Source: Pseudomonadota bacterium
GTDB taxonomy: Bacteria; Pseudomonadota; Gammaproteobacteria; Burkholderiales; Burkholderiaceae_F
Assembly: GCA_029778535.1 (NCBI GenBank)
Contig: JAKOQB010000039.1
Coordinates: 41,298 to 105,297 of the forward strand
DNA length: 64,000 nucleotides
Direction: 5' to 3'
Every line of letters starts with the position of its first letter. Positions within the stretch are counted from its first letter, which is position 1. Shown one piece after another: positions 4,331-63,706 of this stretch. The notes under the pieces are model-generated. The model was given only the letters and a program-made list of their open reading frames with translations. It was not told where the DNA came from and did not search any database. The position numbers and the translations under genes were made by a program.

Positions 4331-5842
4331 ATGCCGCGCTACGTGCTGGCGTTTGACCAGGGCACGACGAGTTCGCGCGCGATCGCGTTCGATCGCGCGG
4401 GCCGCGCGGTCGCCACCGCCCAGCAGGAGTTCCGGCAGATCTTTCCGCAGCCGGGTTGGGTCGAGCACGACGCGACCGAGATCTGGCACACACAGCTCGC
4501 CTGCGCGCAGGACGTGCTGCGGAGAATCGGCGCGAGCGCCGCCGATGTCGCCGCGATCGGCGTCACGAACCAGCGCGAAACGACGGTGATGTGGGACCGC
4601 GCTACCAGCCGGCCGATCGCCCATGCGATCGTCTGGCAGGACCGGCGCACGGCGGATGCCTGCGCTGCGCTGCGCGAGCGCGGGATCGAGGAAGTCTTCA
4701 TGCGCAAGGCCGGGCTGCTGCTCGACCCGTACTTCTCCGGCACCAAGCTCGCGTGGCTGCTCGACCATGTGCCCGGCGCGCGCGCGCGCGCCGAGCGCGG
4801 CGAACTGGCGTTCGGCACCATCGACAGCTGGATCGTCTGGAACCTGACGGGCGGGCGCGCGCACGTCACCGATGTCAGCAACGCGTCGCGCACGCTGCTG
4901 TTCAACCTGCACACACTTGACTGGGACGACGAGTTGCTGCGGCTCCTCGACGTGCCGCGTGCGCTGCTGCCGCGGGTCGTGGCATCGAGCGGCACGGTCG
5001 CCGCCACCGATCCCTCGCTCTTCGGCGGGCAGATCGCGATCGCCGGAATTGCGGGCGATCAGCAGGCCGCGACGTTCGGACAGGCATGCTTCACGCCGGG
5101 CATGGCGAAGAACACCTACGGCACCGGCTGCTTCATGACGATGAACCTCGGCGACGCGCCGCAGCCGTCTTCGGCGCGACTGCTGACCACGCTTGGCTGG
5201 CATCTCGGCGACACCGCGTCCCATTCCGCCGCGCCGGCCACGTTCCTGCGCGAAGGCAGCGTGTTCGTCGGCGGCGCGGTGGTGCAGTGGCTGCGCGACG
5301 GGCTCGGGCTGATCGAAAGCTCGGACGAGATCGAGGCGCTGGCGCGCCAAGTGCCCGACAGCGGCGGCGTGATCCTGGTGCCGGCGTTCACCGGGCTGGG
5401 CAGCCCGCACTGGGACCCGCATGCGCGCGGCTCGATGATCGGCCTCACGCGTGGTACCACGCGCGCGCACGTCGCGCGCGCCGCGCTGGAATCGATCGCG
5501 TTCCAGTCGGCGGAGCTGCTGCACGCGATGCAGCGCGACGCCGCCAGCCCGCTCACCGAACTGCGCGTCGACGGCGGCGCGGCGCGCAACGACCTGCTGC
5601 TGCAGTTCCAGGCCGACCTGATCGGCGTTCCGGTGGTGCGGCCGGTCATGACCGAAACGACCGCACTCGGCGCCGCCTATCTCGCCGGGCTGGCGGTCGG
5701 ATTCTGGTCGGGGCTCCCCGAGATCGCCGCGCAGTGGAAGATGGACAGGCGCTTCGAGCCGCGGATGCCGCAATCGACGCGCGACGCGCTGCTGGGCGAC
5801 TGGCTGCGTGCGGTCGAGTGTTCGCGCGGGTGGGCGCAATGA
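4331..5842 (+). CDS. glpK: Glycerol kinase
   Basis: [21 protein letters not shown].., [33 protein letters not shown] and a ..[16 protein letters not shown] tail are FGGY kinase / GlpK signatures. The start was trimmed to ATG 4331. Confidence 0.95.
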
Positions 5843-7278
5843 GCGCCGCCGCACCGGCACCGGTGCCGATCGTGCGTGAACAACTGCTCGCGCGGCTGCG
5901 CGAGCCCAGGACGTGGGACGCGGTCGTGATCGGCGGCGGCGCCACCGGGCTGGGCATCGCGCTCGACGCGGCCACGCGCGGTCTGCGCGTGGCGCTGATC
6001 GACGCGCAGGACTTTGCGGCCGGCACGTCGAGCCGCAGCACCAAGCTGGTCCATGGCGGCGTGCGGTATCTGGCGCAGGGCAACCTGAAGCTGGTGCGCG
6101 AGGCGCTCGAAGAGCGTGCAATCCTGCTCAAGATCGCGCCGCACATCGTGCATCCGCTCGAGTTCATCGTGCCGTGCTACCGGCTGCTCGAACGCGAGTA
6201 CATGCGCATCGGACTGGGAATGTACGACCTCGCGGCGGGGCGCTTCAGCATCGGACCCACACGGGCGCTGCCTCGCGAGGAGACCCTGCAGCGCCTGCCC
6301 GGCGTGAAGGCCGAGGGGCTGCGCGGCGGCGTCAGTTACTGGGACGGCCAGTTCGACGACGCACTGATGTGCATCGCGCTGATGCAGACCGCGTACGCGC
6401 ACGGCGCCACGCCGATCAACTACGTGCGCTGCGTCGCGCTGCGGCCGGAGGGAGCTGCCGCGACGGTAGTCGCGCAGGATGTCGAAACCGGCGAGCGGTT
6501 CGAACTGCGCGCGCGCTGCGTGTTCAACGCGGCCGGCGTGTGGGTCGACGCGATCCGCAAGCTCGCGGATCCCGCCGCGCGCCCGGTCACGACGGTGAGC
6601 CAGGGTTCGCACATCGTCGTCGACCGCGAATTCCTGCCCGGCACCGCCGGCCTGATGATTCCGCGCACGCGCGACGGCCGCGTGCTGTTCGCGATTCCGT
6701 GGCATCACAAGGTGCTGATCGGCACCACCGATCAGCCGCGTGCCGACGCGCCGTTCGATCCGCAGCCGTCGAAGGAGGAGATCGACTTCATCATCGAAAC
6801 CGCGGCCGGCTACCTGCAGCGGCCGATCACGCACGCCGATGTGCGCGCCGCCTTCGCGGGACTGCGGCCGCTGTTCTCACCCCAGGCCGCCGGCAGCACC
6901 GCGAAGATCTCGCGCGAACACGCGGTGCTGACGGAGTTCGGCTGCGTGATCTCGGTGGTCGGCGGCAAGTGGACCACGTACCGGCGCATGGCGGTCGACG
7001 CACTCGACGCCGCGGCGCGTGCGGGCCTGCTGCCGGCAGGGCGGTCGAAGACTGCGGACCTCATGCTGACCCAGGACGACGTGCTGATCGCCGCGGCGAA
7101 CTCCGGTTCCGCCGCGGAGGCAGGCCTGCAGCGCTTCGCCGCGCACTGCCGGCGCTTCACCCAGGCGCGCACGAACGCCGACGTACTGGCGCGGCGCGCG
7201 CGCCTCGAATTCCTCGACGGCGACATGTCGTGCAGAAGCGCGGCGCGCCTGCAGTCGGCTACATCGACAGTGGGCTGA
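5839..7278 (+). CDS. glpD: FAD-dependent glycerol-3-phosphate dehydrogenase
   Basis: The N-terminus [53 protein letters not shown] carries the GxGxxG FAD fold. ATG 5839 overlaps the glpK TGA (ATGA). Confidence 0.9.
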
Positions 7279-19673: not shown

Positions 19674-19690
19674 TTTCACCGCCATCCGAA

Positions 19691-19758
19691 CTCGCGTGAC
19701 TGGCGCAGGGTGATCACACCCAGGAAGCGCGGGGAACATGTCGCCGTACGCCTGGGCA
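19691..19758 (+). promoter_or_regulatory. ZTP (pfl-motif) riboswitch in the glyA leader
   Basis: CUCGCGUGACUGGCGCA-GGGUG-AUCA-CACCC-AGGAAGCGCGGGG, a short linker, then ACGCCUGGGCA. It matches the conserved GUGACUGGCG core, the P1 (CGCG/CGCG) and P2 (GGGUG/CACCC) helices, and the 3' CCGCCUGGGCA pseudoknot element. It lies 50 nt upstream of glyA, a classical ZTP-regulated gene. Confidence 0.75.
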
Positions 19759-19807
19759 CGATGGCAAGTGGCGAACCCAACACTTGTCCAAAGAAGCCGA
19801 GGAAACC

Positions 19808-21064
19808 ATGTACCGACGTACTCAGACCGTCGAGTTGACCGATCCCGCCGTGTGGGCCGCGATCACTGCAGAGAACCGCCGCCAGGAACAGCACATCGAG
19901 CTGATCGCCTCCGAAAACTACGCCAGCCCCGCGGTGATGGCTGCGCAGGGCTGCTCGATGACCAACAAGTACGCCGAGGGCTATCCCGGCAAGCGCTACT
20001 ACGGCGGCTGCGAGCACGTCGACACCGTCGAGACGCTCGCGCTCGATCGGCTGAAGAGGCTCTTTTCGTATCCGACCATCGAACTGGCGGCCAACGTGCA
20101 GCCGCACTCGGGCGCGCAGGCCAACGAGGCGGTGTTCATGGCGCTGCTGAACCCCGGCGACACGATCATGGGCATGAGTCTCGCCGAAGGCGGGCACCTC
20201 ACGCACGGCATGCCGCTGAACATGAGCGGCAAGTGGTTCAAGGTCGTTTCCTACGGCCTGAACGCGCAGGAGGCGATCGACTACGACGAGATGGAGTCGC
20301 TCGCGCATCGCCACCATCCGAAGCTGATCATCGCCGGCGCCTCGGCGTATTCGCTGCACATCGACTTCAAGCGCTGCGCGCAGATCGCGCGCGACATCGA
20401 CGCGCACTTGATGGTCGACATGGCGCACTATGCGGGCCTGATCGCCGCCGGCGTCTATCCGAGCCCGGTGCCGCACGCGGATGTGATCACGTCGACCACC
20501 CACAAGACGCTGCGCGGTCCGCGCGGCGGGCTGATCCTGTGCAAACCGGCGCTGGAGAAGCAGATCAACAGCGCGGTGTTCCCCGGCCTGCAGGGCGGGC
20601 CGCTGATGCACGTGATCGCCGCCAAGGCGGTCGCGTTCCAGGAAGCACTGCAGCCCGAATTCAAGACCTACCAGCAGCAGGTGCTGGTCAACGCGCGCGT
20701 GATGGCTGAAACGCTGGCCAAGCGCGGACTGCGCATCGTCTCCGGCGGCACCCAGAGCCATCTGATGCTGGTCGACCTGCGCAGCAAGCAGATCACCGGC
20801 AAGGACGCCGAGGCCGTGCTCGGGCAGGCGCACATCACGGTGAACAAGAACGCGATCCCGAAGGATCCGGAAAAGCCGATGATCGCCAGCGGCATCCGCA
20901 TCGGCAGCCCGGCGATGACCACGCGCGGCTTCAAGGAGGAGCAGGCCGAGCAGACCGCCAACCTGATCGCCGACATCCTCGACAACCCACGCGACCCCGT
21001 GAACATCGCACGCGTGCGCGACGAGGTGGAGACCCTGACGCGGACGTTTCCGGTCTATGCGTAA
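19808..21064 (+). CDS. glyA: Serine hydroxymethyltransferase
   Basis: ..[42 protein letters not shown].., [12 protein letters not shown] and ..[14 protein letters not shown].. (PLP lysine). ATG 19808 follows GAGGA; the track start is TTG 19784. Confidence 0.95.
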
Positions 21065-27879: not shown

Positions 27880-28773
27880 TCAAGGCTCGAAGGTCATCGT
27901 CACACCGGTCTGCACCTGAGCAAACCGCCGCCGCGTCTGCTCGAAGTAGTCGGTCTCGATCTCAAATCCGACGCTGTTGCGATTCGACCGGATCGCCGCT
28001 TCGGTGGTTGTACCGCTGCCCAGGAACGGGTCGAGCACGGTGTCGCCGACGAAGGAAAACATCCGAATCAACCGGTATGCCAGTTCGATCGGGAACGGCG
28101 CCGGATGGCCATCGCGGGTCGAAGCGCCGCGGATATCGGTCCAGACGGATCGAAACCAGCGCGCGTGGTCTTCCTTGTCGATCAGGCTGAGCACGCGCTG
28201 TTCCAAGCTCGGCCGGCGATAACCGCCCGGTTTTCGGAACAGCAGCACGTACTCGGTGTCGTTCTTGATGATCGCGTTCGGTTCGTAGGGCTTGCCGAGG
28301 AACGCCCCGCTGCCTTCGACCTCGGTCACCGCATTGGCGATCTTGTGCCAGAGGATCGGCGTGAGGTAGTCAAAGCCAATCTCCTGACAGGCGAGGCTGA
28401 TGTCCGCGTGCAGTGGAATCACCACATGCCGGCCATGATGGCGACGCGGCAGACAGACGTCGCCTACCACGACGCACAGTCGTCCGCCCGGAGCGAGCAC
28501 TTCGAAGCACCTGCGCCAGACCTGATTGAGCGACGCAATGAATTCGCGGTAGTTCCGCACATGGCCGAGCTGCGCGTCACCGGCCCCACCGTCGTACTCC
28601 TTCAACGTCCAGTACGGCGGGCTCGTGACGACCAGATGGATCGAAGCTTCTTCCAGGCCGGGCATTTCACGCGCGTCGCCCCGTACAACCCGGTGTCGCG
28701 TCTCTAGAATGCGCGGATGGCGAGCGAGCAGCGCGTCTCGCGCCGCAAATTTCTCGGCAACTGAAGGTTCCAA
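27880..28773 (-). CDS. Type II DNA methyltransferase, beta-class amino-methyltransferase (SPPY motif; N4-cytosine or N6-adenine)
   Basis: Motif IV, LVVTSPPYW, is N-terminal. The AdoMet motif I, VLDPFLGSGTT, is C-terminal, giving the beta-class order. ..GGRLCVVVGD.. is also present. The only available start is TTG 28773. Local GC is about 42-58% against about 70% in the flanks. Confidence 0.85.
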   Translation of the reverse strand: MEPSVAEKFAARDALLARHPRILETRHRVVRGDAREMPGLEEASIHLVVTSPPYWTLKEYDGGAGDAQLGHVRNYREFIASLNQVWRRCFEVLAPGGRLCVVVGDVCLPRRHHGRHVVIPLHADISLACQEIGFDYLTPILWHKIANAVTEVEGSGAFLGKPYEPNAIIKNDTEYVLLFRKPGGYRRPSLEQRVLSLIDKEDHARWFRSVWTDIRGASTRDGHPAPFPIELAYRLIRMFSFVGDTVLDPFLGSGTTTEAAIRSNRNSVGFEIETDYFEQTRRRFAQVQTGVTMTFEP

Positions 28774-43055: not shown

Positions 43056-46000
43056 TCACGCGGGAACGCGCTGCTTGCGTTGCGCCAGGTAACGGCGCAT
43101 CAGCGCCAGCAGTTCGTCTTCCTGGTACGGCTTGCCCAGGTATTCGTTGACGCCAAGGTCGAATGCCATCCTGCGGTGCTTTTCCGCCGTGCGCGACGTG
43201 ATCATGATGATCGGGATGCCGCTCATGGCCGCGTGGCCGCGAACGTTGCGCGTCAGCTCGAAGCCGTCCATCCTCGGCATCTCGATGTCCACCAGCATCA
43301 GGTCGGGCGTCAGATCCTGCAGCTGGCGCAGCGCGTCGACGCCGTCCTTGGCCTGCAGCACCTCGTAGCCGTGGCGCTCGAGCAGCCGCTGGGTGACGCG
43401 CCGGACCGTCAGCGAATCGTCGACCACCATGACCTGCGCCGGCGTGGCGGCGGCGATCTCGGTCGCGCCTTCGGCGCCGCCTTCCCCGGCCTGCGGCGCG
43501 AAGCGCGCGTCGGACAGCGTCGGCGGCTCCGGCGCGCGCATGATCAGCTGCACCGGGTTGATGATCAGCACGATCTCGCCGTTGCCCAGGATCGTCGCGC
43601 CCAGGATGCCGGCCAGCCGCGACACGCTCGCGCCGACCGTCTTGACCACGATCTCCTGATTGTTCGACACGTCGTCGACCGCGATCGCGAGCCGGTCGTC
43701 GCCGGACTTCAGCACGACCACCGGGATCTGCTTGACGTGCGCGAGCGTGATCTCCTCGCCCAGCAGTTGCGCCAGCGGCCGCAGCACGACCGGGCCGACG
43801 CCGGGGACCTCGATCATCCCTTCGCCGATCGAGCGCCCGATCTCCGACGGGCGGAAGCGCAGCACCTGCTCGACCATGCCCGACGGCAGCGCGAAGCGGC
43901 GCTGTCCGACGCGGGCCAGCACCGCCTGCATCACCGCCAGCGTCAGCGGCAGATACAGGGTGAAGCGAGTGCCGCGTCCGGCTTCGGTGCTCACGGCGAT
44001 GCGGCCGCCGAACGAACCCAGCTCGGAGCGCACCACGTCCATGCCGACGCCACGGCCGGCGAGTTCGGTCACCTCGGTCGCGGTCGTGAATCCGGGCGCG
44101 AAGATCAGTTCCATCAAATCGCGCTCGGACACCGGCTGATCGGGAGCGATCAGCTTGCGCTCGATCGCGCGCGCGCGGATGCGCTCGAGGTTCAATCCCG
44201 CGCCGTCGTCGGCGATCACGACGATGATCTCGTTGGCCTCCTGCCGCACGTCGATCTTCAGTTCCCCGGTCTCCGGCTTGCCGGCGGCCCTGCGCTGCGC
44301 CGGCGTCTCCAGCCCGTGGGCGATCGCGTTGCGCACCAGGTGCTCGAACGGCGCGCCCATTTTTTCCAGCACGCCGCGGTCGATCTCGGTGTTGGCGCCG
44401 CGGATGTCGAGGTTCACGCGCTTGTCGAGTTCCTTCGCGGCCTGGCGCGCGACCCGGTACAGGCGCTCGGAGATGTTGGCGAACGTGACCAGCCGCACGC
44501 GCATCAGCTGCTGCTGCAGTTCGCGCGTCAGCCGCCCCTGCGATGTCAGGTCGGAGTCGGCGAGCTGCACGCCCTTGAGCATGCTGCCCTGGACCATTGC
44601 CACATCCTCGACGGTCTCGCGCAGCATCCGCGTCAATTCCTGCAGCCGCGTGTAGCGGTCGTACTCGAGCGGATCGAACGCGGCCGACTCGCGCGAAAGC
44701 TGGTCGGAGCGCGCCTGGATCTGCGCGTCGGCCTGGATCTCCACTTCGCGCAACTGCGAGCGCAGCCGCTGGATGTTCTCGGTCAGGTCGACAATCGCGC
44801 CGCGCAGCGTGGTGACCTCGTTCTCCAGCTTGGCGCGCGCGATCGACACCTCGCCGGCGTGGTCGACCAGCTTGTCGAGCACGTCGGCGCGCACGCGGAT
44901 GTAGTTCGCCGTCGGCGCCGCGGCCGGCGCGGCCATCGTCGCAGTGATCTCCTCGGGCGCGGCCGCCTCGGCCGCCCGCATCGGGGCGACCGGCTGCGCC
45001 GCCGCGGGTGCGGCGGCCTGCGCCGGCGCGATGCCCGACTGCAGGCCGTCGAACAGGCCCAGCGCGTGGTCGTACGCGGTGTGCAGGTCCTCGATCAGAT
45101 CGGCCGGCACGTCGGCCAGGTGCATCGAGGCCTCGATGCGCGTTTCCATGTCGTGCACGACCTCGCCCAGCCGCATCGCGCCCGCCATGCGCGCGCTGCC
45201 CTTGACGGTGTGCAACTGGCGCATCAGCTCGCGCGCCACGTCGCGATCGTTGGGTCGCGCGGCCAGCGCTCGCAGCCTGGCGCCGATCGCGGGCAGCAGC
45301 TCGCTGCCCTCGGTCAGGAACACCGGCAGCAGGTCCGGGTCGAGTTCGTCGCGTACCGCCGGCGCGGCGGGCCGCGGCTCCTCGAGCGGCGCCGTCGACG
45401 CGATCTGGCCGAGCAGCGCGGCGGTCTCCGCCGCGGCCGCGCCTTCTTCCGCGGGTTTGACTTCCTCGGCCGGCTGCGCAGCGGCCGCGGCGACCGGCGC
45501 GATCGCCATCGGTTCCGGCGCGGTGACCGGCGCGGGCGCCGCTTCCTCGGCCGGCGATTCCTCTTCCTCGGCGGCGGGCAGGTGCAGCGCGGCCTGCGCG
45601 CGCACCACGCTCAGCAGGTCCTGAACCGCGGCGGCGTCGAGCGGCGCACGATCCGGATAGATGCCGGCGGCAAACTGGTGCAGCATGCCGCGCATGCGCT
45701 CGATCGCGCGCTCGAGCGTGTCGAACTGCGGCGGCGCCAGCGTCACGTGCGCGCCGGCTTCGCCGCTCAGCTCATGCAGCAGGTCGTCGAGCGGATCGGC
45801 GATCTCGAGCACCGGCTCGACGCCGACCGTGGAGGTGATCCCGGCCAGCGAATGCGCGCGCCGCGCCGCCTGCGCGGACGCCGGCCGCTGCGGTTCGTAG
45901 CGCCACTCGGACACGTCCTGCGCCAGCGTGCGGATGCACTCGTCCGATTCGTTCAGGAACACCGAGTACAACCCGTGGCTGACCGCGACCGGACCGATGC

Positions 46001-48686
46001 GCTTGACCTCGTCGGCGGCGATCGGCTCCGGTTCGGCTGCCAGCGGCGCCTCGACCGGCGCGGCCGCGGCGGCCGGCGCCGGAATCTCGAACTCGAACTC
46101 CGGCACGTCGACGGCGACGTGCTCCTCGTGCGCCTCTTCGGCCGGCGCCGGCGCGACCGGCGCGGCGGCAACCGGCGCGGGGGCGGCCTCCGGCAATCCC
46201 AGTCCGGCGGCGGAAAACGGTCCGCCTTCGCGCACGCGATTGGCGGCGCGCACCAGCGCGTCGCTGTCGATCGGCGCCTGCGGGTTGGCGGCGATCTGCG
46301 CGATCCAGCCGCGCATCAGCGTGCGCGCCGCCGATGCGAGCTTGATCAGGTCGTCGCTGGCCGGGCGTTCCTGCGACAACCACAGGTTGAAGCATTGCTC
46401 GATCGACCAGGCGCCCTCGCCAAAGGACTTCAGCCCCACCATGCGGCTGGATCCCTTCAGCGTGTGGAACGCGCGCCGCGTGGTGGTGAGCGTGGCCTGG
46501 TCGGCCGGCGTGGCCGCCAGCCGCGCGAGCTGCGCGTCGATCGTGTCGAGCACCTCGTTGGCTTCCTCGACGAAGATGCCGAGCAGTTCGGCGTCCGCCG
46601 CGGCCTCGGTCGCGGGCAGCGGCGCGGGCGCAGGTGCCGGCGCCGCGACCGGCGGCGGCGCGAAGATCTGCAGCAGTTCGGCGACCGAATTGGCGTTGCG
46701 CACTTCGTGCAACTGCCTGACCAGCACCGCGGCGCGCGCGGCGCGCTGCTTCAGCGCATCGTCGTCGAGCAGGTCGGCGTCGTTCGTGAGCTGCGGCAGC
46801 ACCTGGTCGAACTCGCGCAGCGCGGTGGTGTCGCCGCTGGCGAGCCGCTGCGCCAGCGCGTGCGCCTGCTCGACGTGGCGGCGTGCGGCCGATTCGACGT
46901 TCTCGCCCGGCGCGCCGCCCATGCGCGTGATCGGGCCCATCTCGCCTTCGCGCGCGGCCTCGATCGGCATGATCGCCAGGTCGGCGGAGAACACGCCGGC
47001 GTCCGCGTCCCAGCGGAACATGCCGCGCGGTCGGTCCGCGTCCTGGCTCAGCGTCTCGACGAAGAAGCCGACCGCGCCCAGGTTGTTGGCGATGCGCAGG
47101 AACTCCTGCTGGCTCGGCGCCGCGTCCGGCCGCGCAAAGCGCTCGATCGCGCTCTGCGCGTTGCGGATCGCCGCCACCGGATCGTCGTGGCCGAGCAGCG
47201 ACAGAACCCCGGCGATCTGGTCGAGCATCGGCGGGGTGGCGGCCAGTTCGGCGCGTTCGGCCGGCTGGCGGAAGAAGCGGTCGAGCCGCTGTTCGACTTC
47301 GCGCAGCGTGGCCTGCGTCTCGGCCACGACCGTGCTCATCGTCAGCCGGTCCTGCGCCTTGCGCGCCAGTTCCGTCAGCCACGGTCCGAGGTCGGGCAGC
47401 GGCTGATCATTGCGCGCGGCCACCAGGCGCTCGGCGACCTGGCGCGCGCGGCTCTCGAACAACGGTTCGGTGTGCGGCAGCTCCTCGATGCCCAGATCGG
47501 CGAACAGCAGCGCCGAGGCGATCTCGATGCCGAGCGTCTCGCGCGCCGACGGCGACATCGTGCCGATGTCGGCAGCGAGCGAGCCGACGGTGTCGAGCAC
47601 GATGTCGATGGCGTGCGCGCCGATCCTGTGCGCCGCCTTGCGCGCGAGCTGGATCTCGTGCACGAACTTGGTCGCGTCGTTCGACAGCCCGCCCGCGAGC
47701 GGACTCCACTGCGCCTTGGCCTGCGCCAGCGCTTCCTTCAGCGTGCGCAGCTGCTCCTGGTCGATCGACGTCAGCGTGGCGCGCTCGAAGTCGGGCGGGA
47801 TCAGCGCGTCGAGGCCGTACAGCCGCTTGATCTCGGCCACGCGCGCCTCGCCTGCTGCTGCGCGGCCGACGTAGTACAGCGCGTCGATCATCAGCCGCTC
47901 GGCCACCGCGCTGCTGCCTTCGATCAGGCGCCGCAGCTGCAGGTTCAGCCGCGCCAGCACGCGCTTCAGATCGACGTCGATCGGCAGGTGGTCGGCGGCG
48001 AGCGCGTCCATCATCCCGCGCACGATCCACCAGAAGCTGCGCGCCAGCCCGCGCTGCGGCAGGTTCTCCAGGTCGAGCAGCGCGTCGCGCATCATGCCGC
48101 GCGCGTCAACGTCGTTCGGATTGCGCAGGAAGCCGAGCAGGCCGCTCTCGAAGTGGACGCGGCGCACGCGCAACTGGTCGGCCGTCATCGGCCGGATGCT
48201 GATGCTGTGAAACGCCGGCCGGCGCGACAGATCGGGAAAGATCAGGTCGGCCGCGTGCACGCGCGGGGCGCGCGACAGCACCAGGATCTCGCGGTAGTAG
48301 GGGAACAGGCGCACCGGCTGGTTCGGCCGCCCCGCCAGCATCGCCTCCAGGTACGCGACCACCGCCGACAGCGTCGACTCGACCGACCGCACCGCCGCCG
48401 GCAGGCACTCGCGTGGCTCGGCTTCCCAGCGCCGCAGCAATTGTTCGACCGCGTCGAGCACCTGCACCACGCCGCGCAGATTGAGCATCTGCAGCGCGCC
48501 GTTGGCCTGGTGGATCTGCGCGCGCGCGGCGCGCAGCGGCTCGACGTCGCCCTTGGCGCCGAGGAATGTCTGCGCGTTCGCGGTCGCCTGCGCCAGCGCG
48601 GTGCGGATCTCGCCCAGCACCCACGCCAGCGGCGCCACGTCGGGCGCGACTTCGGCGATCTGACCCGGATCCTGCGTCTCGCTCAT
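43056..48686 (-). CDS. chpA: ChpA/PilL-type hybrid CheA histidine kinase of the type IV pilus chemosensory system (multiple Hpt domains, CheA core, CheW-like domain, C-terminal receiver)
   Basis: 1876 aa. Repeated Hpt-like segments are present (..RRAFHTLKGSSRMVGL.., ..RRAHSLAGITSTVG.., ..MRQLHTVKGSARMAGA..) with Ala/Pro-rich linkers. The HATPase region carries (..HLVRNAIAHGLE.., ..DDGAGLN.., ..GRGVGMDVV..), followed by a CheW-like domain and a REC domain (..VMVVDDSLTVRR..LMLVDIEMPRMDGFEL..). ATG follows GGAGAG. Confidence 0.92.
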   Translation of the reverse strand: MSETQDPGQIAEVAPDVAPLAWVLGEIRTALAQATANAQTFLGAKGDVEPLRAARAQIHQANGALQMLNLRGVVQVLDAVEQLLRRWEAEPRECLPAAVRSVESTLSAVVAYLEAMLAGRPNQPVRLFPYYREILVLSRAPRVHAADLIFPDLSRRPAFHSISIRPMTADQLRVRRVHFESGLLGFLRNPNDVDARGMMRDALLDLENLPQRGLARSFWWIVRGMMDALAADHLPIDVDLKRVLARLNLQLRRLIEGSSAVAERLMIDALYYVGRAAAGEARVAEIKRLYGLDALIPPDFERATLTSIDQEQLRTLKEALAQAKAQWSPLAGGLSNDATKFVHEIQLARKAAHRIGAHAIDIVLDTVGSLAADIGTMSPSARETLGIEIASALLFADLGIEELPHTEPLFESRARQVAERLVAARNDQPLPDLGPWLTELARKAQDRLTMSTVVAETQATLREVEQRLDRFFRQPAERAELAATPPMLDQIAGVLSLLGHDDPVAAIRNAQSAIERFARPDAAPSQQEFLRIANNLGAVGFFVETLSQDADRPRGMFRWDADAGVFSADLAIMPIEAAREGEMGPITRMGGAPGENVESAARRHVEQAHALAQRLASGDTTALREFDQVLPQLTNDADLLDDDALKQRAARAAVLVRQLHEVRNANSVAELLQIFAPPPVAAPAPAPAPLPATEAAADAELLGIFVEEANEVLDTIDAQLARLAATPADQATLTTTRRAFHTLKGSSRMVGLKSFGEGAWSIEQCFNLWLSQERPASDDLIKLASAARTLMRGWIAQIAANPQAPIDSDALVRAANRVREGGPFSAAGLGLPEAAPAPVAAAPVAPAPAEEAHEEHVAVDVPEFEFEIPAPAAAAAPVEAPLAAEPEPIAADEVKRIGPVAVSHGLYSVFLNESDECIRTLAQDVSEWRYEPQRPASAQAARRAHSLAGITSTVGVEPVLEIADPLDDLLHELSGEAGAHVTLAPPQFDTLERAIERMRGMLHQFAAGIYPDRAPLDAAAVQDLLSVVRAQAALHLPAAEEEESPAEEAAPAPVTAPEPMAIAPVAAAAAQPAEEVKPAEEGAAAAETAALLGQIASTAPLEEPRPAAPAVRDELDPDLLPVFLTEGSELLPAIGARLRALAARPNDRDVARELMRQLHTVKGSARMAGAMRLGEVVHDMETRIEASMHLADVPADLIEDLHTAYDHALGLFDGLQSGIAPAQAAAPAAAQPVAPMRAAEAAAPEEITATMAAPAAAPTANYIRVRADVLDKLVDHAGEVSIARAKLENEVTTLRGAIVDLTENIQRLRSQLREVEIQADAQIQARSDQLSRESAAFDPLEYDRYTRLQELTRMLRETVEDVAMVQGSMLKGVQLADSDLTSQGRLTRELQQQLMRVRLVTFANISERLYRVARQAAKELDKRVNLDIRGANTEIDRGVLEKMGAPFEHLVRNAIAHGLETPAQRRAAGKPETGELKIDVRQEANEIIVVIADDGAGLNLERIRARAIERKLIAPDQPVSERDLMELIFAPGFTTATEVTELAGRGVGMDVVRSELGSFGGRIAVSTEAGRGTRFTLYLPLTLAVMQAVLARVGQRRFALPSGMVEQVLRFRPSEIGRSIGEGMIEVPGVGPVVLRPLAQLLGEEITLAHVKQIPVVVLKSGDDRLAIAVDDVSNNQEIVVKTVGASVSRLAGILGATILGNGEIVLIINPVQLIMRAPEPPTLSDARFAPQAGEGGAEGATEIAAATPAQVMVVDDSLTVRRVTQRLLERHGYEVLQAKDGVDALRQLQDLTPDLMLVDIEMPRMDGFELTRNVRGHAAMSGIPIIMITSRTAEKHRRMAFDLGVNEYLGKPYQEDELLALMRRYLAQRKQRVPA

Positions 48687-48699
48687 GGCGCTCTCCAGG

Positions 48700-50907
48700 T
48701 CAGGACACGCGGAAGCGCGCCACCGACGCCTTCAGTTCGCGCGCGAGCGTGGCGAGCTGCCCGATCGACTGCGCCGCCTGGCGCGTGCCCTGCGAGGTCT
48801 GCTCGGTGGTCGCCAGGATGCTCTCGATCGACACCGCGACGCCGCTGGCCGACTGCGCCTGCTCGCCGGTGGTGCCTGCCACGCGTTCGATGAGGTCGGC
48901 GACCTGCCGCGTCACGCGTCCGATCTCGGCCAGCGACGTGCCGGCGGCATCGGACAGCTTGGTGCCCTCGACCACGCCCTGCGTGCTCTTCTCCATCGCG
49001 GTGACCGCGTCCTGCGTGTCGGTCTGAATCGTTCGGACCAGAGCGCCGATCTGCTTGGCTGCTTCGGCGGACCGGTCCGCCAGCCGCTGCACTTCCTCGG
49101 CCACCACCGAGAAGCCGCGCCCTGCCTCGCCGGCAGAAGCGGCCTGGATCGCCGCGTTCAGCGCCAGCACGTTGGTCTGCTCGGTGATGTCGGAGATCAG
49201 TTCGACGATCTCGCCGATCTCCTGCGACGACTCGCCCAGCCGCTTGATGCGCTTGGCGGTCTCTTGGATCTGCTCGCGGATCTCGTTCATGCCCGCGATC
49301 TGGTTGTACACCGCGCGCTGGCCGCGTTCGGCCGCGTCAAGAGATGCGCGCGCCACGCGCGCCGATTCGGTCGCGCTGCGCGAAGCCTCGTTGATCTGCG
49401 AGGCCATGATCAGCACCTTCTGGCCGGTGTCCTTGATCTCGCGGCTCTGCTGCTCGGAGGCCGACAGCAGCGCGGTCGTGATCTCGCGCGCCTGCGTCGA
49501 CGCGGCGCTGACCTGCTCGGCCGCGTCGTTGATGCGGCTGACCAGCCCGCGCAGCTCCTCGACCGTGTAGTTGACCGAGTCGGCGATCGCGCCGGTGATG
49601 TCCTCGCTCACCGTGGCCTCGATCGTCAGATTGCCGTCGGCGACCTCCTGCAGCTCGTTCATCAGTCGAAGAATGGCGGCCTGGTTCTGCTCGTTGGCGC
49701 GCTTGGCGGCCTCCTCGAACTTCTGCGCCTCGTTGCGGCGCGCCTCGGCTTCGAGCGTGCGGCTGCGGCTGTCGCCGAGCAGGATCTTGACCAGCCCGAT
49801 CGTCGCCAGCAGCACGGCCAACCCGAACACGGCCATGATCACGAAGTTGACCGCGCGCACGCCGCCTTCCTTCTGCAGCTCGCCCTGCACGTTCGACAGC
49901 TGCCCGCGCAGCTTCTCGGCGTCGCGCTGGATCACGGTCTGCGCGCGCCCGGCCTCGACCACGGAAGTGAAACCGCTGCTTGCCGCCGCGATCGACGGCT
50001 GCAGGTCGCCGAACAGCTTGGCGATCTGTTGCAGCCGTGGCCGCGCCTCGCCTTCACCGGCGCTCACGCTCTGCAGCAGATCGCGGAACTGCGCCAGATC
50101 GCGCGTCAGCGTCTGCGCCGCCTCCGCGCCCGCCAGCCCCGCCGGCAGCGCGGCCGCGGTGCGGGCGATGCGCTGCGCCAGCAGCGCGAGCTGCGCCAGC
50201 GGCGCGCTCTGGCCGCGCTGCGCCGCGAGTTCGTCGGTCAGTTGCGCGATGCGCGGCGCCGCCTCGTTCAGCCGCGTCAGGAAGTCGCCGTAGGCGCGCA
50301 GCGCCTTGTCGTGCGCGACGATCTGCGAAGCGGCGGTCTCGGAAGCCTTCCACGTGGTGGCGGCCTGCTCGAGCGCCGGTGCCGCGGACGAGCCGATCGC
50401 GCCGGCCAACGCCTCGAGGTTGGCAGCGACGCGGTCGCGGCTTTCGCGCAGTTCCGTCAGCGCGGTGCCGTTGCCCTCGGCCGCGCGCGGCGCCGCCTTG
50501 GCGAGCCGCTGCGAATGCGTGAGCGTGTCGCCGAGCAGTTGCGCCTGCGCGGCGTTGTTGGCCGCCAGACGAACGTCGATCGCCAGCACCGCCGCGAACA
50601 GGAACGCGAACACGCCCATCAGCGTCAGCATCACCTGCACCTGCGTGTTCAGCGGCCGGGTGCCGATGAAGGGCAGCCTCCACGCCAGCAGGCGATCGAC
50701 CATCCGCGAACCCCAGGTGCTCGACAGCGCGGCCTCGATCGCGCGGCGATCGATCTTCTGCGTCGGCGGGCTGGGCGGGATCGGCGCGCGCGCGCGGCCC
50801 GCCACCTCCGCCGCAGCGAACTCCGTGTAGCGGAACGGCTGCACGGTGATCTGGCCCTCGCCGTCCTTCGACGAGCTTTTCATCTCTGCGTCCATCGCCA
50901 TGCCCAT
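48700..50907 (-). CDS. pilJ: Methyl-accepting chemotaxis protein PilJ
   Basis: The highly conserved MCP signalling hairpin is present (..[48 protein letters not shown]..), with an N-terminal TM, a periplasmic domain, a second TM and HAMP. The start was set at ATG 50907 (AGGAG 8 nt upstream), just after the pilI stop. Confidence 0.9.
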
Positions 50908-50933
50908 TTCCGCACTCCTGTGCGCGCCGTCCG

Positions 50934-51458
50934 TCAGGCGCCGATCGCGCTGAACCGCTCGAACGCCACCAGGCTCGCCAAGTCGAGCTCGGTCAGGATC
51001 GTGCCGTCGCTGTCGCGGTAGCGCACGCGTTCCCACGGCCTGGATCCGTCGTTCGCGGCCTCCAGGCGTTCCAGTTCCTTCAGATTGCGCAGCCCGAAGG
51101 CGCGGGTGATGATCAGCGCCGCGCTCGACTTCAGCGATTCGCCGATCACCAGCAGCTGCTGCGCCTGCTCGGGGCCCAGCGCCGTGCCGCCGCTGAACTG
51201 CATCAGGTCGACCACGCCGACCAGGCGGCCGCGCACGTTGGTCAGGCCCCGGTACCACGGCTTGGTCCACGGCACCGGCGCCACGTCGCCGAGCGGAACG
51301 ATTTCACCGGCCGACGCCATTTCGACCAGATACGCGCGGCTGCCGATGCGCACCGCCAGCCGCAGCGACGCGCCGGTGGCCACCGGCGCGGTCTTCAGGC
51401 GCTCGGCGAGCTGCGTCGAGAAGTCGCGCAGCTTGTCCAGTTGCTTTTCGGACTGCAT
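50934..51458 (-). CDS. pilI: CheW-like coupling protein PilI
   Basis: ..[51 protein letters not shown].. ATG 51458 follows GGAGGAG. Confidence 0.88.
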
Positions 51459-58274: not shown

Positions 58275-59719
58275 TCAACCGGTCTCGTAGACCCATTGCA
58301 GCAGCGCGTCGTGCACGCCCTGCGCGTCGCGCGCGTTCGGGTGATTGATGATCGCGACCACCGCGTAGCGGCGGCCGCTCGCCGCCAGCACATAGCCCGC
58401 GATCGGCCTCACATCGGCGAGCAATCCGGTCCTGATGTGGGCGCGGCCGGTCGCGCTGTTGCGTTTCTTCATCGTGCCGTCCACACCCGCCAGCGGCAAC
58501 GACGAGACGAACTCGGGCATCAGCGGTCCGGCATACGCGTCGACCAGCAGCCGCGCCAGGCTGCCGGCCGAGATCCGCTCGACCCGCGACAGCCCGGAGC
58601 CGTTTTCGAGCACGAGCTCCGGCATCTGCAGCCCGCGTGTCGCGAGCCAGTCGCGCACCGCGCTTGACGAGTGCTCGGCATTGCCCGGTTGGCGGCTGGT
58701 TTCCGCGCCGATCGTCAGAAACACCTGGCGCGCCATCACGTTGTTGCTGAATTTATTGAGTCGCGGATCACGTCGGCCAGTGGCGCCGACTCGTGCAGCG
58801 CGATGCGGCGCGCGTCCGCGGGCGCGACGCCTTCGCGCACCTTGCCCGTCCAGCCGCCGCCGGCGCTTTCCCGAAGAGCACGGAACGCGGCGCCGAAGTA
58901 CCGGGTGTGTCCGAGCACGCTGATGTGCCGGGTCTTCTCGCCGCAGGCGAGTGGAAATGCGCCGCGCAAGACGGGCGCCATAGGATCGGTGAAGTCGGCC
59001 TGCAGGCGCGCGCGCCAATCGCCGCAGTTGCCGTGGACGCCGCGGACGGTCGGCGGCAGCTTCATTCCCGCCAGCGCCGGCGTGGCGACGACGCGCGCGC
59101 TGCGCGTGTCCGAATCGGGAACGAAGCCGAGCGTCAATGCCTTGAAGTTCAGCAGCAGCGCGTCGGGCCCGGCGTTGTAGGGCCGGTTCGCTTCGCCGTC
59201 GAACAGCGCCGGGTCGTGCAGCAGCGGCTCGAACGCGGACTTGTCGAGCACGAGGTCGCCGCGAATCTCACGCAGACCGTAGGCACGCAGCCTGCTCACC
59301 AGCAACCACAGGTGCTCGGTCACCAGCTTTGGATCGCCGCTGCCGCGCACAACGAGATCGCCTTCAAGCCGGTCGCGGCGCAGCGCGCCGGTTGCGAAGG
59401 CTTACGTGCGCCACGTGCAGGCGGGGCCGAGCAGGTTCAGCGCCGCGTAGGTCGTCACCAGCTTCATCGTCGATTCCGGGTGCATCGGGATCGTCGTGTT
59501 GACCGCGATCGACACGCCGCTGCCCGACAGCGGCTGCACGACGACCGCCGAGGCGGTCGGCGGGATCGCCGCCTGGCGCAGCGCGGCGGCGATAGAGTCC
59601 GACAGTTGTGTGCTCGCGCTGTCGGCGGTCTGCGCGGCCGTTGCACCGGCCATGCGCAGCGTCAGCAGGAATGCGAGGCCGAGGGTGCGGTTCAGCGGCA
59701 CACGGGAGACGACGCGCAT
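58275..59719 (-). pseudogene. dacB: D-alanyl-D-alanine carboxypeptidase/endopeptidase (PBP4, DacB) disrupted by an in-frame TAA and a 1-nt deletion
   Basis: Three track ORFs tile one PBP4 sequence. The N-terminus is ..PMHPESTMKLVTTYAALNLLGPACTWRT-TAA(59402-59404), followed in the same frame by AFATGALRRDRLEGDLVVRGSGDPKLV.. The middle part runs to ..APLADVIRD and then shifts frame at about 58760-58765 (GAC-TCAATAAATTC; restoring one base gives DINKFSNNVMARQVFL). The C-terminal part is ..LENGSGLSR.. ..KTG-like ..HIRTGLL.. ..VVAIINH. Confidence 0.75.
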
Positions 59720-59768
59720 GGCGACGGAACCGACTCGGCGAAAGCGGCGCCTCACGCCGTCGCGGGAT

Positions 59769-60638
59769 TCAGCGGTTCAGCGCGGAGGAAAGGCGGCGGC
59801 GAAAGGATGCGACCAGTTGCGGCTGGCCAGCGGCGAGGTCGAACACCGACAGCATGGTCTTGCGACCGACGTCGTCGCCGAAGCCGCGATCGTGTTCGAC
59901 GATCGCGAGCAACTGCTCGAGCGCAGGCTCGAATTCGCGCCGCGCGATGTGAAGCCGTGCCAGATCCAGGCGCGCCTGCAGATCGGCGGGATCCGCCTCG
60001 ATGCGCGCGTGCAGCGTCGATGCCGGCGGCAATTCGGCGGCGCGGCGCAGACTTTCGGCGCGCGTGGCGAGCGCGCGAAAGCTCGGGTCATCGCGAGTGA
60101 CCTTCGTCGCCGCAGCCAGCAGGCGCTCGGCTTCCTCGATTGCGGGGGCCCCACCGAGCGACTGCGCGTGATCCAGCAGCAGCGCGGCCAGATCGAGACG
60201 CGCGGACTCGTTGTCCGATGACAGCGCGACCGCCGCGCGCAGCGCCGTCGCCGCGGCGGCGACATCGCCGGCCGCGAGCAGTCGCGCTGCCTTGCGCCGC
60301 TCCAGCTCGCTCGGATCCGGCAGCAGGCGTGCGACGAAAGCGCGCAATTGGCTGTCCGGCACGACGCCGACGAACGAGTCGACCGGCTGTCCGTCGGCGA
60401 ACGCAACCACGTACGGAATGCTGCGCACGTTGAACTGCGCGGCGATCTCCGCGTTTTCGTCGGTATTGATCTTGACCACGCGCAGCCGGCCGACGAACTC
60501 GGTTTCGATCCTTTCGAGCATCGGGCCGAGCGTGCGGCACGGACCGCACCACGGGGCCCAGAAATCGACCAGGACCGGCGTGCGGTGCGACGCTTCGATC
60601 ACGTCGCGGGTGAAGGTTTGCTGGGTTGCTTCGATCAT
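59769..60638 (-). CDS. Thioredoxin-domain plus TPR co-chaperone (YbbN/CnoX-like), retaining a WCGPC active site
   Basis: ..PVLVDFWAPWCGPCR.L.P.LE.. ..KINTDEN..IA..F.VRSIP.. is followed by a long helical TPR-like C-terminal domain. ATG 60638 follows GAGG. Confidence 0.88.
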   Translation of the reverse strand: MIEATQQTFTRDVIEASHRTPVLVDFWAPWCGPCRTLGPMLERIETEFVGRLRVVKINTDENAEIAAQFNVRSIPYVVAFADGQPVDSFVGVVPDSQLRAFVARLLPDPSELERRKAARLLAAGDVAAAATALRAAVALSSDNESARLDLAALLLDHAQSLGGAPAIEEAERLLAAATKVTRDDPSFRALATRAESLRRAAELPPASTLHARIEADPADLQARLDLARLHIARREFEPALEQLLAIVEHDRGFGDDVGRKTMLSVFDLAAGQPQLVASFRRRLSSALNR

Positions 60639-60705
60639 CGTTCGCCTCGATACCATCACATCGGGTCGCGCTGCGCGAACATCAAGACCCGCGCGCCTCT
60701 ACCGC

Positions 60706-61380
60706 TCACGCGCTGAGCTGGATCATGCCGAGCCCGGCGCGCCGATGATGGCCGAAACCGCGCAGGATGCGGGCGCGGAACGGGTCCGGGTGGAGCACTT
60801 CGAGCGCGCCCTCGATGGTCGCGTGATCGATGCGGATGCGACTGCCATGGTGCTCGAAGCGCAGTGCGGTCATCGAAACGTCGGCCATCAGCAGGCGCAT
60901 GCCGAAGCGTTCGGCGCTGCCCTTGAACCAGATCTCCACCTCGTCCTTGGTACGGAACGGTTCGACTTCCTTTTCCGCGCCTTCCAGCCGCGCGCGTCCG
61001 GCGCAGACCGGCAGACTGAATCGGTACATCAGGCCGGGCGCCACCTGGATCAGCGTTCGCTTTGGCTCCAGCGCGCTGATCGCGCGCGCCGGCCGCCGCG
61101 GCCACGGCGCGATCGACTGCACCCAGTAACGGCCGTCGATGGTGCTGTCGGCCCGGAACAGGAAGTGGCCTTCGCCGGCGCGATTGCCAAACGTGGTGGC
61201 CAGCTCCGCATGCGCCATCAGCGGATTCGTGTCCGGCGGAAAGGTGACCGCGGTCTCGAACACCTCGACGGTGGGAACCTCAAGCTTCGTATAGCTCAGG
61301 ACCGAATGGACGAAGCGGTCGGGCTTGCGCGCGGCTTCCGGCTTCGATCCGGTGCGTAGAAACGGCAGAGTGAAACTCAT
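60706..61380 (-). CDS. Solitary Cas6e/CasE (Cse3)-like RAMP endoribonuclease homologue
   Basis: 224 aa with segments that parallel CasE sequences recalled from memory:
- NPLMAHAEL (cf. NPYEMHRTL / LYQLHQGL, the catalytic His region).
- GHFLFRAD....YWVQSIAPWP (cf. DFLFHVE....VLLQSAQMP).
- MYRFSLPV (cf. LYFRLRANP).
- EVEIWFKGSAERFGMRL (cf. KVAWLERRLEEGGFRL).
- C-terminal IEGALEVLHPDPFRARILRGFGHHRRAGLGMIQLSA (cf. FEGRLEVVDPERALATLRRGVGPGKALGLGLLSVAP, the glycine-rich loop).
There is no adjacent cas gene or array. Confidence 0.6.
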   Translation of the reverse strand: MSFTLPFLRTGSKPEAARKPDRFVHSVLSYTKLEVPTVEVFETAVTFPPDTNPLMAHAELATTFGNRAGEGHFLFRADSTIDGRYWVQSIAPWPRRPARAISALEPKRTLIQVAPGLMYRFSLPVCAGRARLEGAEKEVEPFRTKDEVEIWFKGSAERFGMRLLMADVSMTALRFEHHGSRIRIDHATIEGALEVLHPDPFRARILRGFGHHRRAGLGMIQLSA

Positions 61381-61410
61381 CCTGGGGCGGGTCGCACGAG
61401 CAATGCGAAC

Positions 61411-61438
61411 CGGGTCCTTCGGAGAATCCGAGGACCCG
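61411..61438. other. GC-rich stem-loop in the leader of the CasE-like gene
   Basis: CGGGTCCT(T)CGGA-GAA-TCCGAGGACCCG is a stem of about 12 bp with one bulged T and a 3-5 nt loop. It lies 31 nt upstream of the ATG at 61380. A second 5-bp hairpin (TCGCA-CGAGCAA-TGCGA) at 61392-61408 sits between it and the start. Confidence 0.6.
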
Positions 61439-61599
61439 TCGCGCGCGGGCCATTAGTAGCGTATCGGTGCATTCTCCGGTATCCCTTTGCATCATTAGCC
61501 CGTTCCGACTAAGCCGCGAGAGGAACTCGGCTTGCAGTCAAGGACTCCAGGCCCCGGAGTTTGGGGAGGGCGGAACGCCGATCAGGGCCGGTCGAGGCC

Positions 61600-61628
61600 T
61601 TGATCGATAAGGACGATGCACTTATCAT
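61600..61628 (+). promoter_or_regulatory. Sigma70-type promoter of groESL
   Basis: TTGATC-N17-TATCAT. The -10 abuts the CIRCE operator, the classical HrcA-controlled arrangement. Confidence 0.6.
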
Positions 61629-61735: not shown

Positions 61736-62023
61736 ATGAAAATTCGTCCTTTGCACGATCGCGTGATCGTCAAGCGGCTGGACCAGGAGCGCAAGACCGC
61801 GTCGGGCATCGTGATCCCGGACACCGCGGCTGAGAAACCCGATCAGGGCGAAATCATCGCCGTCGGCCCCGGCAAGCGCGATGACAACGGCAAGCTGATT
61901 GCGCCGGACGTGAAAGTCGGTGACCGGGTGCTGTTCGGCAAGTATGCGGGCCAGACCGTCAAGGTCGAAGGCGAGGAACTCCTCGTCATGCGCGAAGAAG
62001 ACCTCATGGGCGTGATCGCCTAA
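61736..62023 (+). CDS. groES: Co-chaperonin GroES
   Basis: [46 protein letters not shown]. Confidence 0.97.

Positions 62024-63706
<1,683 letters not shown>

Follow-up and report, generated by a model that had tools for sequence, protein, structure and literature searches.

We analysed a stretch of 64,000 nucleotides (nt) from a Pseudomonadota bacterium of the Burkholderiales (GenBank assembly GCA_029778535.1, contig JAKOQB010000039.1; the whole stretch is called the window below). A solitary open reading frame (ORF) on its minus strand, initially annotated as resembling the type I-E CRISPR endoribonuclease Cas6e, also known as Cse3 or CasE, was found to belong to a conserved family that keeps a fixed position among housekeeping genes (coordinates of all features of the locus are collected in Table 1). 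We consider it fairly probable that this gene is a domesticated, CRISPR-independent derivative of Cas6e, whose product would recognize a specific cellular stem-loop encoded elsewhere and would probably cut it by means of His57. The evolutionary case for domestication is strong.

The 224-amino-acid (aa) protein, for which only one start codon is possible upstream of the conserved region, matches the Pfam family PF08798 (CRISPR_assoc) across residues 51-222 with 61.6 bits (gathering score, 25; E = 1.6e-16) and the Cas6e models of PADLOC with an E-value of 8.5e-20. Against the NCBIfam equivalog TIGR01907, it scores 35.3 bits, under the cutoff of 45.2. A search of the PDB with the single sequence reached T. 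thermophilus Cse3 at no better than E ~0.01, and a search of the PDB sequences with the family profile returned nothing at E <= 0.001, after which the relationship was assessed by structure comparison and by profile alignment with hhalign. An AlphaFold2 model built from 23 family members has a mean predicted local distance difference test score (pLDDT) of 86, residues 1-30 being disordered. The best PDB matches of this model in Foldseek are all Cse3 or Cas6e structures: T. thermophilus Cse3 matches with E = 8e-13 and a template modelling (TM) score of 0.66-0.75, and E. coli Cas6e with E of about 1e-9, the top set (2y8w, 2y9h, and 3qrp for T. thermophilus Cse3; 4tvx and 4dzd for E. coli Cas6e) spanning E-values of 8e-13 to 1e-8 and TM scores of 0.64-0.76. 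Other Cas6 types give much weaker matches. The model contains two tandem ferredoxin/RRM-like domains that superpose on the solved Cas6e structures.

Since the protein matches the Pfam and PADLOC models, falls below the TIGR01907 cutoff, and finds little or nothing in sequence searches of the PDB, we regard it as a real but strongly diverged homologue of Cas6e, as judged from sequence and model; its identity to canonical Cas6e sequences is 17-25%. Profile and fold comparison thus agree with the initial annotation, with the exception of the equivalog score. That annotation had described the protein as Cas6e-like along its whole length, which is correct for residues 37-224 but not for the first ~36 residues.

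The family profile was aligned with hhalign to E. coli CasE (a sequence identical to PDB 4qyz chain K), and solo members were aligned with MAFFT to 11 canonical-length Cas6e proteins together with E. coli CasE. Each of the motifs by which the gene was first recognized has its counterpart in E. coli Cas6e: FLFR (residues 73-76) aligns with FLFH, WVQS with LLQS, and YRFSL with YFRLR, and the glycine-rich loop and the N-terminal His likewise find their equivalents, the latter in catalytic His20. Replacement of His20 by Ala abolishes the RNase activity of E. coli Cas6e (PMC4499155). His57 is invariant throughout the solo family, deepest members included, and in canonical Cas6e, as are eight other residues (L74, S89, W151, G191, G208, G210, G216, and G218).

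The family is well delimited. In an exhaustive HMMER search of 1.84 billion representatives, full-length members score 250-280 bits and canonical-length Cas6e proteins ~54 bits or less, and a word-indexed search returned at least 171 family clusters at 90% identity. PF08798 is present in all but one of the 120 best clusters listed, whose proteins mostly have 201-251 aa, with a few outside this range. Databases name the members type I-E CRISPR-associated Cas6/Cse3/CasE, and the organisms named for the clusters are Burkholderiales or Burkholderiaceae metagenome bins. An alignment of 23 members down to 50% identity has 57 invariant columns and a mean column identity of 63%; the conserved protein surface is nearly invariant across clades. 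We also compared 96 related sequences, with identities of 47-97%, and found a full-length match to the gene in nearly all of them where the contig permits; one (L077) lacks the N-terminal part.

Two observations concern the membership of the family. One related sequence (L001, JBLMYK010000197.1) comes from a metagenome-assembled genome labelled Gemmatimonadota; because it shares the gene order of the window and has a groEL 96% identical to the one there, we suspect that this is a Burkholderiales contig placed in the wrong bin. Some giant proteins were considered as relatives and rejected. In four of them (P0128, P0133, P0134, and P0139), residues 111-151 of the profile are matched in 13-26 stretches, and those scanned among these matches (P0134, P0139, and P0145, the last with 570 aa) proved to consist of fibronectin type III repeats; the matches therefore look like an artefact of many weak beta-strand similarities.

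We estimated the ratio of nonsynonymous to synonymous substitution rates (dN/dS) by the Nei-Gojobori method in ten pairs from three clades. The cas6e-like gene has values of 0.08-0.18, compared in the same pairs with 0.10-0.34 for ybbN (one aberrant value, arising from a mis-framed BLAST segment, was excluded), 0.13-0.28 for dsbD, and 0.03-0.11 for groEL. The gene is under strong purifying selection, stronger than that acting on ybbN and dsbD. These values bear on a possibility raised in the initial annotation, namely, that the gene is the last remnant of a decayed type I-E locus. A solitary, diverged gene that scores below the equivalog cutoff is consistent with such an origin, but its dN/dS lies below that of ybbN and dsbD, its 57 invariant columns and its full-length conservation over so wide a range of identities point the other way, and the same window offers an example of how decay would look: The dacB-like gene, second downstream, has an in-frame stop and a frameshift, in contrast to the intact cas6e-like gene. 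On the data for selection and conservation, we reject the reading of a functionless remnant, to which we attach almost no probability.

The genomic context differs from that of a CRISPR-Cas locus. No CRISPR array was detected in the window by Tandem Repeats Finder, by a direct-repeat search, or by Rfam. PADLOC, run on the 134 ORFs of the window with at least 170 aa, matched 60 families (E <= 1e-5); the 25 strongest of these include no other Cas family, the only Cas models being those matched by the cas6e-like ORF itself. No cas operon (cas3, cse1, cse2, cas7, cas5, cas6e, cas1, cas2) with an adjacent array was found in the window, and the earlier statement that it lacks cas1, cas2, cas3, Cascade genes, and repeat arrays is borne out for these 25 families and by the array searches. 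Related loci were covered with flanks of 5-10 kb. No array-like periodic repeats occur in the 96 related sequences (693 kb), and no cas genes appear in the gene tables of the related long contigs checked, in which the neighbourhood consists of pyrimidine genes, ruvX, a photolyase gene, groESL, the cas6e-like gene, ybbN, dacB, a redoxin gene, dsbD, and chemotaxis genes.

The position of the gene within this neighbourhood is largely constant. A divergent groES lies upstream in 65 of the 70 loci with sufficient upstream sequence, and the next gene downstream is ybbN-like in 66 of 83 loci and dacB in 15. The neighbours in the window are those first reported: a gene for a YbbN-like co-chaperone 67 nt downstream, and groESL, controlled by a CIRCE (controlling inverted repeat of chaperone expression) element, in divergent orientation; the order ybbN, cas6e-like gene, groES is the prevailing one among the related loci. 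At 47-54% identity, in the deepest members, groES is separated from the cas6e-like gene by genes for a BLH-phosphatase-like protein and an MFS transporter, and dacB comes immediately after the cas6e-like gene; groES is 1-3.6 kb from the cas6e-like gene in deep-branching members. The impression is of an ancestral arrangement under slow erosion, not of a tight operon.

This context also bears on a further suggestion of the initial annotation, that the protein acts in trans, as a Cas6e maturing the CRISPR RNAs (crRNAs) of a type I-E array elsewhere in the genome. The fold of the protein is genuinely that of the Cas6e family, catalytic His included, the database names point to type I-E, and our data cover the window and the flanks of related loci rather than whole genomes. 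However, a housekeeping position that is fixed in 96 sequences is unlike that of mobile cas islands, a very wide gap separates its scores from those of canonical Cas6e, conservation and dN/dS resemble those of housekeeping genes, and type I-E operons normally carry a cas6e of their own; moreover, no array was found in the window or in any of the flanks, and no other cas gene among the 25 strongest PADLOC families of the window or in the gene tables checked. In view of this gap and of the fixed place among housekeeping genes, we judge that a trans-acting Cas6e is very unlikely.

According to the reading we prefer, domestication, the protein would descend from the pre-crRNA endoribonuclease of type I-E systems but stand alone, inherited vertically in one Burkholderiales lineage within the fixed order groEL-groES, divergent cas6e-like gene, ybbN/cnoX, dacB. 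It would bind one specific stem-loop in a cellular RNA through its basic cleft and glycine-rich loop. Most likely it would use metal-independent His57 chemistry to cut the stem at its 3′ base and would retain the product, as canonical Cas6e does, and it would act as a processing or regulatory factor for the bound transcript, which is probably encoded elsewhere in the genome. A domesticated RAMP RNase was among the possibilities first proposed for this gene. The fixed position, the purifying selection, the fold, the His, and the loop all favour it, whereas RNase activity is something that we infer from sequence and model.

Several points weigh against this reading. Some of them concern the active site. 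In 10 of the 12 aligned canonical sequences, the third residue ahead of the catalytic His is a Tyr (Tyr17 in E. coli, Tyr23 in T. thermophilus), which we take to participate in catalysis in T. thermophilus Cse3; the corresponding residue here is Leu54, and it is Leu or Val in all solo members aligned, so that P-Y-x-x-H of the canonical proteins corresponds to P-[LV]-x-A-H of the solo family. Likewise, the strand R-F-x-L-x-x-N-P has changed to R-F-x-L-x-V-C-A-G, the canonical R-x-R-A-N-P being replaced by S-L-P-V-C-A-G. Judged by these residues, cleavage activity could be reduced, altered, or lost, and catalytic competence is plausible but not assured. To these points are added the score below the equivalog cutoff and the empty profile search of the PDB. 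All members of the family come from metagenome assemblies, and the argument for CRISPR independence is one from context and divergence, within the window and the flanks. No RNA target was found, the flanking non-coding DNA containing no hairpin or structured RNA that is conserved across the family.

The loss of the canonical Tyr and RANP strand in all members would fit a different function, that of an RNA- or protein-binding factor without nuclease activity, which could be an RNA regulator or an adaptor acting through its conserved N-terminal segment and perhaps linked to the neighbouring chaperone genes. Consistent with this are the family-specific conserved segment at residues 23-36, which precedes the fold with low-to-medium model confidence, as a partner-binding motif would; the presence among the weaker structural matches of a P. 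furiosus Cas6-related protein (3ufc), which we take to be a non-catalytic Cas6 paralogue; and the persistent adjacency to groES-groEL and ybbN. A catalytic His that is invariant down to the deepest members is, however, hard to explain if catalysis was lost long ago, and Cas6 enzymes tolerate widely differing active-site compositions. The link to the neighbourhood is also loose: ybbN has a promoter of its own, no sigma-32-type site was found ahead of the cas6e-like gene, and unrelated genes intervene in the deep clades. We hold a purely binding role to be unlikely, without dismissing it.

The initial annotation drew attention to a strong hairpin in the leader of the cas6e-like gene. The hairpin is real and lies 31 nt upstream of the ATG as described, but its exact span is 61412-61437 instead of 61411-61438, and its stem, capped by a 3-nt loop, comprises 11 base pairs and one bulged A instead of ~12 bp. 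Its predicted folding energy is -21.4 kcal/mol (z = -3.3), and none of 200 shuffled sequences is as stable. It occurs in a single copy in the window, which rules out a REP-like repeated element. In a MAFFT alignment, the 3′ arm was one column out of register, and each sequence was therefore folded separately. The position of the hairpin is kept in seven relatives with at least ~81% protein identity (L090, L003/L011, L094, L010, L001, and L002), where it lies ~13 nt downstream of the invariant GCTACTAATGG box. Double compensatory changes occur at two places in the stem (U-A to A-U in L001 and L002; C-G to A-U in L010), and the bulge shifts its place between sequences; both features favour an RNA structure over a protein-binding DNA palindrome. 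The stems of L001 and L002 are no more stable than shuffled sequences (z = -0.6 and -1.3, respectively). For the subclade of at least ~81% identity, we take these data as evidence, modest yet genuine, of an RNA structure under selection.

The hairpin does not extend to the rest of the family. It is absent or unrecognizable in clade-A members of 71-76% identity (L091, L092, L093, and L095 lack it), and RNAalifold finds no consensus structure in the full clade-A leader (10 leaders, -2.5 kcal/mol) and no conserved structure in the 58-64% clade (14 leaders, -3.2 kcal/mol, no covariation). Over 64 distinct leaders, the mean shuffle z-score is -0.41, and values are near zero under ~57% identity. The RNAalifold results for the two clades together with this mean rule out a family-wide leader hairpin. 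The leader hairpin is not the conserved target of the family: A structure confined to one subclade cannot be the substrate of a protein whose surface is nearly invariant across all clades.

This distribution bears on the reading of an autoregulatory RNase whose main substrate is its own leader, and which would set the level of its own mRNA by binding or cutting at the 3′ base of the hairpin. The stability of the hairpin and its uniqueness in the window are in keeping with such a role, as are its kept position in the seven close relatives with their compensatory changes and moving bulges, and its location ~13 nt past the conserved -10-like box, from which it follows that the hairpin is probably transcribed. 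These observations have to be set against its absence from the 71-76% members, the lack of any consensus structure in either clade, the near-zero z-scores of the deeper leaders, and the invariant surface residues, which argue for a conserved target; even within the subclade, the hairpins of L001 and L002 are no stabler than expected by chance. The hairpin is also unlike those of I-E repeats, which have a stem of 6-7 bp and a tetraloop, and a 5′ stem-loop can act as a generic mRNA stabilizer. We think it quite improbable that self-cleavage or self-binding is the main function. Autoregulation through the leader, as first proposed, is thus not supported as a property of the family but may apply in this one lineage: In the window's subclade, the hairpin may be a secondary cis site for autoregulation, or a plain stabilizer of the 5′ untranslated region.

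Upstream of the leader hairpin, the GCTACTAATGG box, in which TACTA is invariant in 10 of 10 clade-A leaders, is a possible -10 element; if it is one, the hairpin lies near the 5′ end of the mRNA. A scan with the sigma-70 consensus gave no match on the minus strand. The full pattern in clade A is GGAAC.G..TAATG, GGGAT, 20 nt, and the GCTACTAATGG box (minus strand, 61450-61506 in the window), and in several clades the distance between GGGAT and the GCTACTAAT box is constant at 20 nt. In the 58-64% clade, the conserved boxes are found ~100-135 nt upstream of the start and read GAGGGACTAATCCGCGCGG...GCGGCACGCTTGC (for example, at ~9870-9925 in L005). By our reading, the upstream boxes of neither clade fit the spacing of sigma-70, sigma-54, or sigma-32 promoters. 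A sigma-54 promoter was considered for the boxes of the 58-64% clade (GGCACGCTTGC) and rejected, the GG-GC spacing being 3 nt too short for what we take to be the sigma-54 consensus. The conserved block upstream of the cas6e-like gene is separate from the promoters of its neighbours.

Table 1. Features of the cas6e-like locus in the window (positions are those of the 64,000-nt stretch; residues refer to the 224-aa protein)
Feature	Position	Strand	Basis or remark
Solo cas6e-like ORF, 224 aa	60706-61380	minus	ORF list; Pfam, NCBIfam, and PADLOC profiles; model; Foldseek; family alignment; dN/dS
Variable, disordered N-terminus	residues 1-22	minus	Protein layout
Family-specific conserved segment (FVHSVLSYTKLEVP)	residues 23-36	minus	Protein layout
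Cas6e double-RRM fold	residues 37-224	minus	Protein layout
His57 codon	61210-61212	minus	Aligns with catalytic His20 of E. coli Cas6e (hhalign and MAFFT)
Glycine-rich loop GFGHHRRAGLG (RAMP signature), residues 208-218	60727-60759	minus	Corresponds to GIGPAKSMGCG of E. coli Cas6e
Leader stem-loop GGGUCCUCGGA-UUC-UCCGA(A)AGGACCC	61412-61437	minus	Folding and orthologues
Box GCTACTAATGG, possible -10 element of a cas6e-like promoter	61450-61460	minus	Clade-A leaders
Conserved boxes GGAACGGGCTAATGA and GGGATACC	61478-61506	minus	Leader alignments
ybbN/cnoX-like thioredoxin-TPR gene	59769-60638	minus	Pfam Thioredoxin, TPR_19, and TPR_20
Sigma-32-type promoter of ybbN, CTTGAT-N15-CCCGATGT	60658-60686	minus	Spacer just past the cas6e-like stop codon
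Promoter-like TTGATC-17-TATCAT of groES	61600-61628	plus	Abuts CIRCE
CIRCE, TTAGCACTC-N9-GAGTGCTAA	61628-61654	plus	Invariant in relatives
groES	61736-62023	plus	After CIRCE
groEL	62054-63706	plus	After CIRCE

The likely start codon of the ybbN-like gene is the ATG at 60638, which is preceded by GAGG. Two boxes, CTTGA or CTTGC and, at a distance of 14-15 nt, CCCCAT or CCCGAT with NT behind it, precede the gene in every clade (CTTGA-N14/15-CCCSATNT). A strict regular expression matches 35 of the 59 distinct ybbN spacers, the remainder being one-base variants; in the whole window, with both strands counted, it has only four matches, including the one at 60686-60658. On this pattern, which we take to be the sigma-32 heat-shock consensus, the ybbN-like gene is a probable member of the heat-shock regulon with its own promoter. 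We rejected the idea that the spacer separating the cas6e-like gene from ybbN holds a conserved RNA element: Its conserved boxes make up the sigma-32-type promoter rather than a hairpin. In two related sequences, the spacer upstream of ybbN contains three to four tandem units of ~45 nt that include promoter-like boxes (CCCATTGAACCCTGCGG...CTCCATCTA; L073 at ~5625-5870 and L074 at ~5625-5835).

No sigma-32-type promoter was found for the cas6e-like gene or for groES, with no matches on either strand of 51 groES/cas6e-like spacers, and the predicted groES promoter is sigma-70-like. Two further candidates for a target close to the gene were discarded. For a small RNA or known RNA family in the spacer between groES and the cas6e-like gene, the centre of the spacer cannot be aligned and the best Rfam match has E = 0.46. 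As for the CIRCE RNA, the predicted -10 box of groES abuts CIRCE, so that a transcript from this promoter would presumably begin within the left arm and lack the complete hairpin; CIRCE also occurs widely among bacteria with no solo Cas6e protein. The connection to proteostasis implied in the initial annotation is thus confirmed as far as the neighbours themselves are concerned but is weaker than implied, given the separate promoter of ybbN and the distance to groES in the deep members. Although the cas6e-like gene is flanked by two stress-controlled units, no observation points to control shared with them.

Other features of the window were noted in passing. The dacB-like gene, encoding a D-Ala-D-Ala carboxypeptidase (58275-59755, minus strand), has its in-frame stop at 59402-59404 and its frameshift near 58760, relative to the 477-aa orthologue that is intact in L090; either the gene is a pseudogene or the assembly is in error here. 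Directly upstream of glyA (serine hydroxymethyltransferase; 19784-21064, plus strand) lies a ZTP/ZMP riboswitch (19686-19764, plus strand; Rfam RF01750, 47.4 bits), a known arrangement, and the Rfam scan of the window returned nothing else. An ORF for an N6/N4 DNA methylase (27880-28773, minus strand; PF01555, E = 1.6e-41) with an SPPY motif is probably the source of the strong PADLOC matches to Type II methyltransferases. A 1876-aa hybrid CheA-like kinase with several Hpt domains and with HATPase, CheW, and receiver domains (43056-48686, minus strand) adjoins the gene for an 856-aa methyl-accepting chemotaxis protein (48700-51270), and the two look like a chemosensory cluster.

Compared with canonical Cas6e of E. 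coli and T. thermophilus, the solo protein has the same double ferredoxin/RRM fold, the same Pfam family, the His in helix 1, the C-terminal G-x-G-x-x-K/R-x-x-G-x-G loop, and the FLFR, VQS, W151, and EG-L-V motifs. It differs in having no cse1, cse2, cas7, cas5, cas3, cas1, cas2, or array beside its gene in the window or at related loci; in its fixed housekeeping position and slow, housekeeping-like evolution; in its low identity and sub-cutoff equivalog score; in the changes from Tyr to Leu or Val and from RANP to VCAG; and in its ~36 extra N-terminal residues, which include a conserved segment. The equivalog score, the active-site Tyr, and the genomic context all depart from those of type I-E CasE, and for this reason we suggest that the protein be placed in the Cas6e superfamily but should not be filed as type I-E CasE.

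Related departures from adaptive immunity are known. In Streptomyces, a type I-E-derived module of cas5, cas6, cas7, and cas8 with a STAND NTPase lacks Cas3, the adaptation genes, and an array (PMC8730458). Like the solo gene, it consists of I-E parts outside canonical adaptive immunity with another predicted role; unlike it, the module combines four Cascade genes with a putative cell-death effector and is defence-like, whereas we find a lone gene among housekeeping genes. Solo-Cas4 and other Cas-family genes outside CRISPR-cas loci (PMC5704561) provide a precedent for a Cas family with many members away from cas loci, although Cas4 is a different protein family with a different activity (a DNA nuclease). 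The P. furiosus protein 3ufc is, like the solo protein, a Cas6-fold paralogue with an altered active site. In contrast to the solo family, which keeps the catalytic His and has no CRISPR context, it is an archaeal, generic Cas6, which presumably still acts on CRISPR repeats. We found no description of a solo Cas6e family in the full-text literature searched, a coverage that leaves out most subscription journals.

Cas proteins in non-defence roles are rare and informative, and known recruited cases are mostly whole effector modules or concern Cas9, Cas1, Cas2, and Cas4. We put at about even the chance that the family represents the first vertically inherited, CRISPR-independent Cas6e, with a housekeeping role as a structure-specific endoribonuclease or as an RNA-binding regulator acting on a defined transcript. 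That transcript may be related to stress or proteostasis, since the gene is fixed between two heat-shock transcription units. If this is true, the hairpin-specific RNA-cutting module of CRISPR can be domesticated on its own for cellular RNA metabolism, and the family would offer a Cas6e that nature has re-targeted, its RNA specificity new and its active site altered (Leu in place of Tyr, VCAG in place of RANP), which could interest users of Cas6/Csy4-type RNA-processing tools. The label that databases attach to these proteins, type I-E Cas6/Cse3/CasE, will lead to false CRISPR-Cas calls in Burkholderiales genomes.

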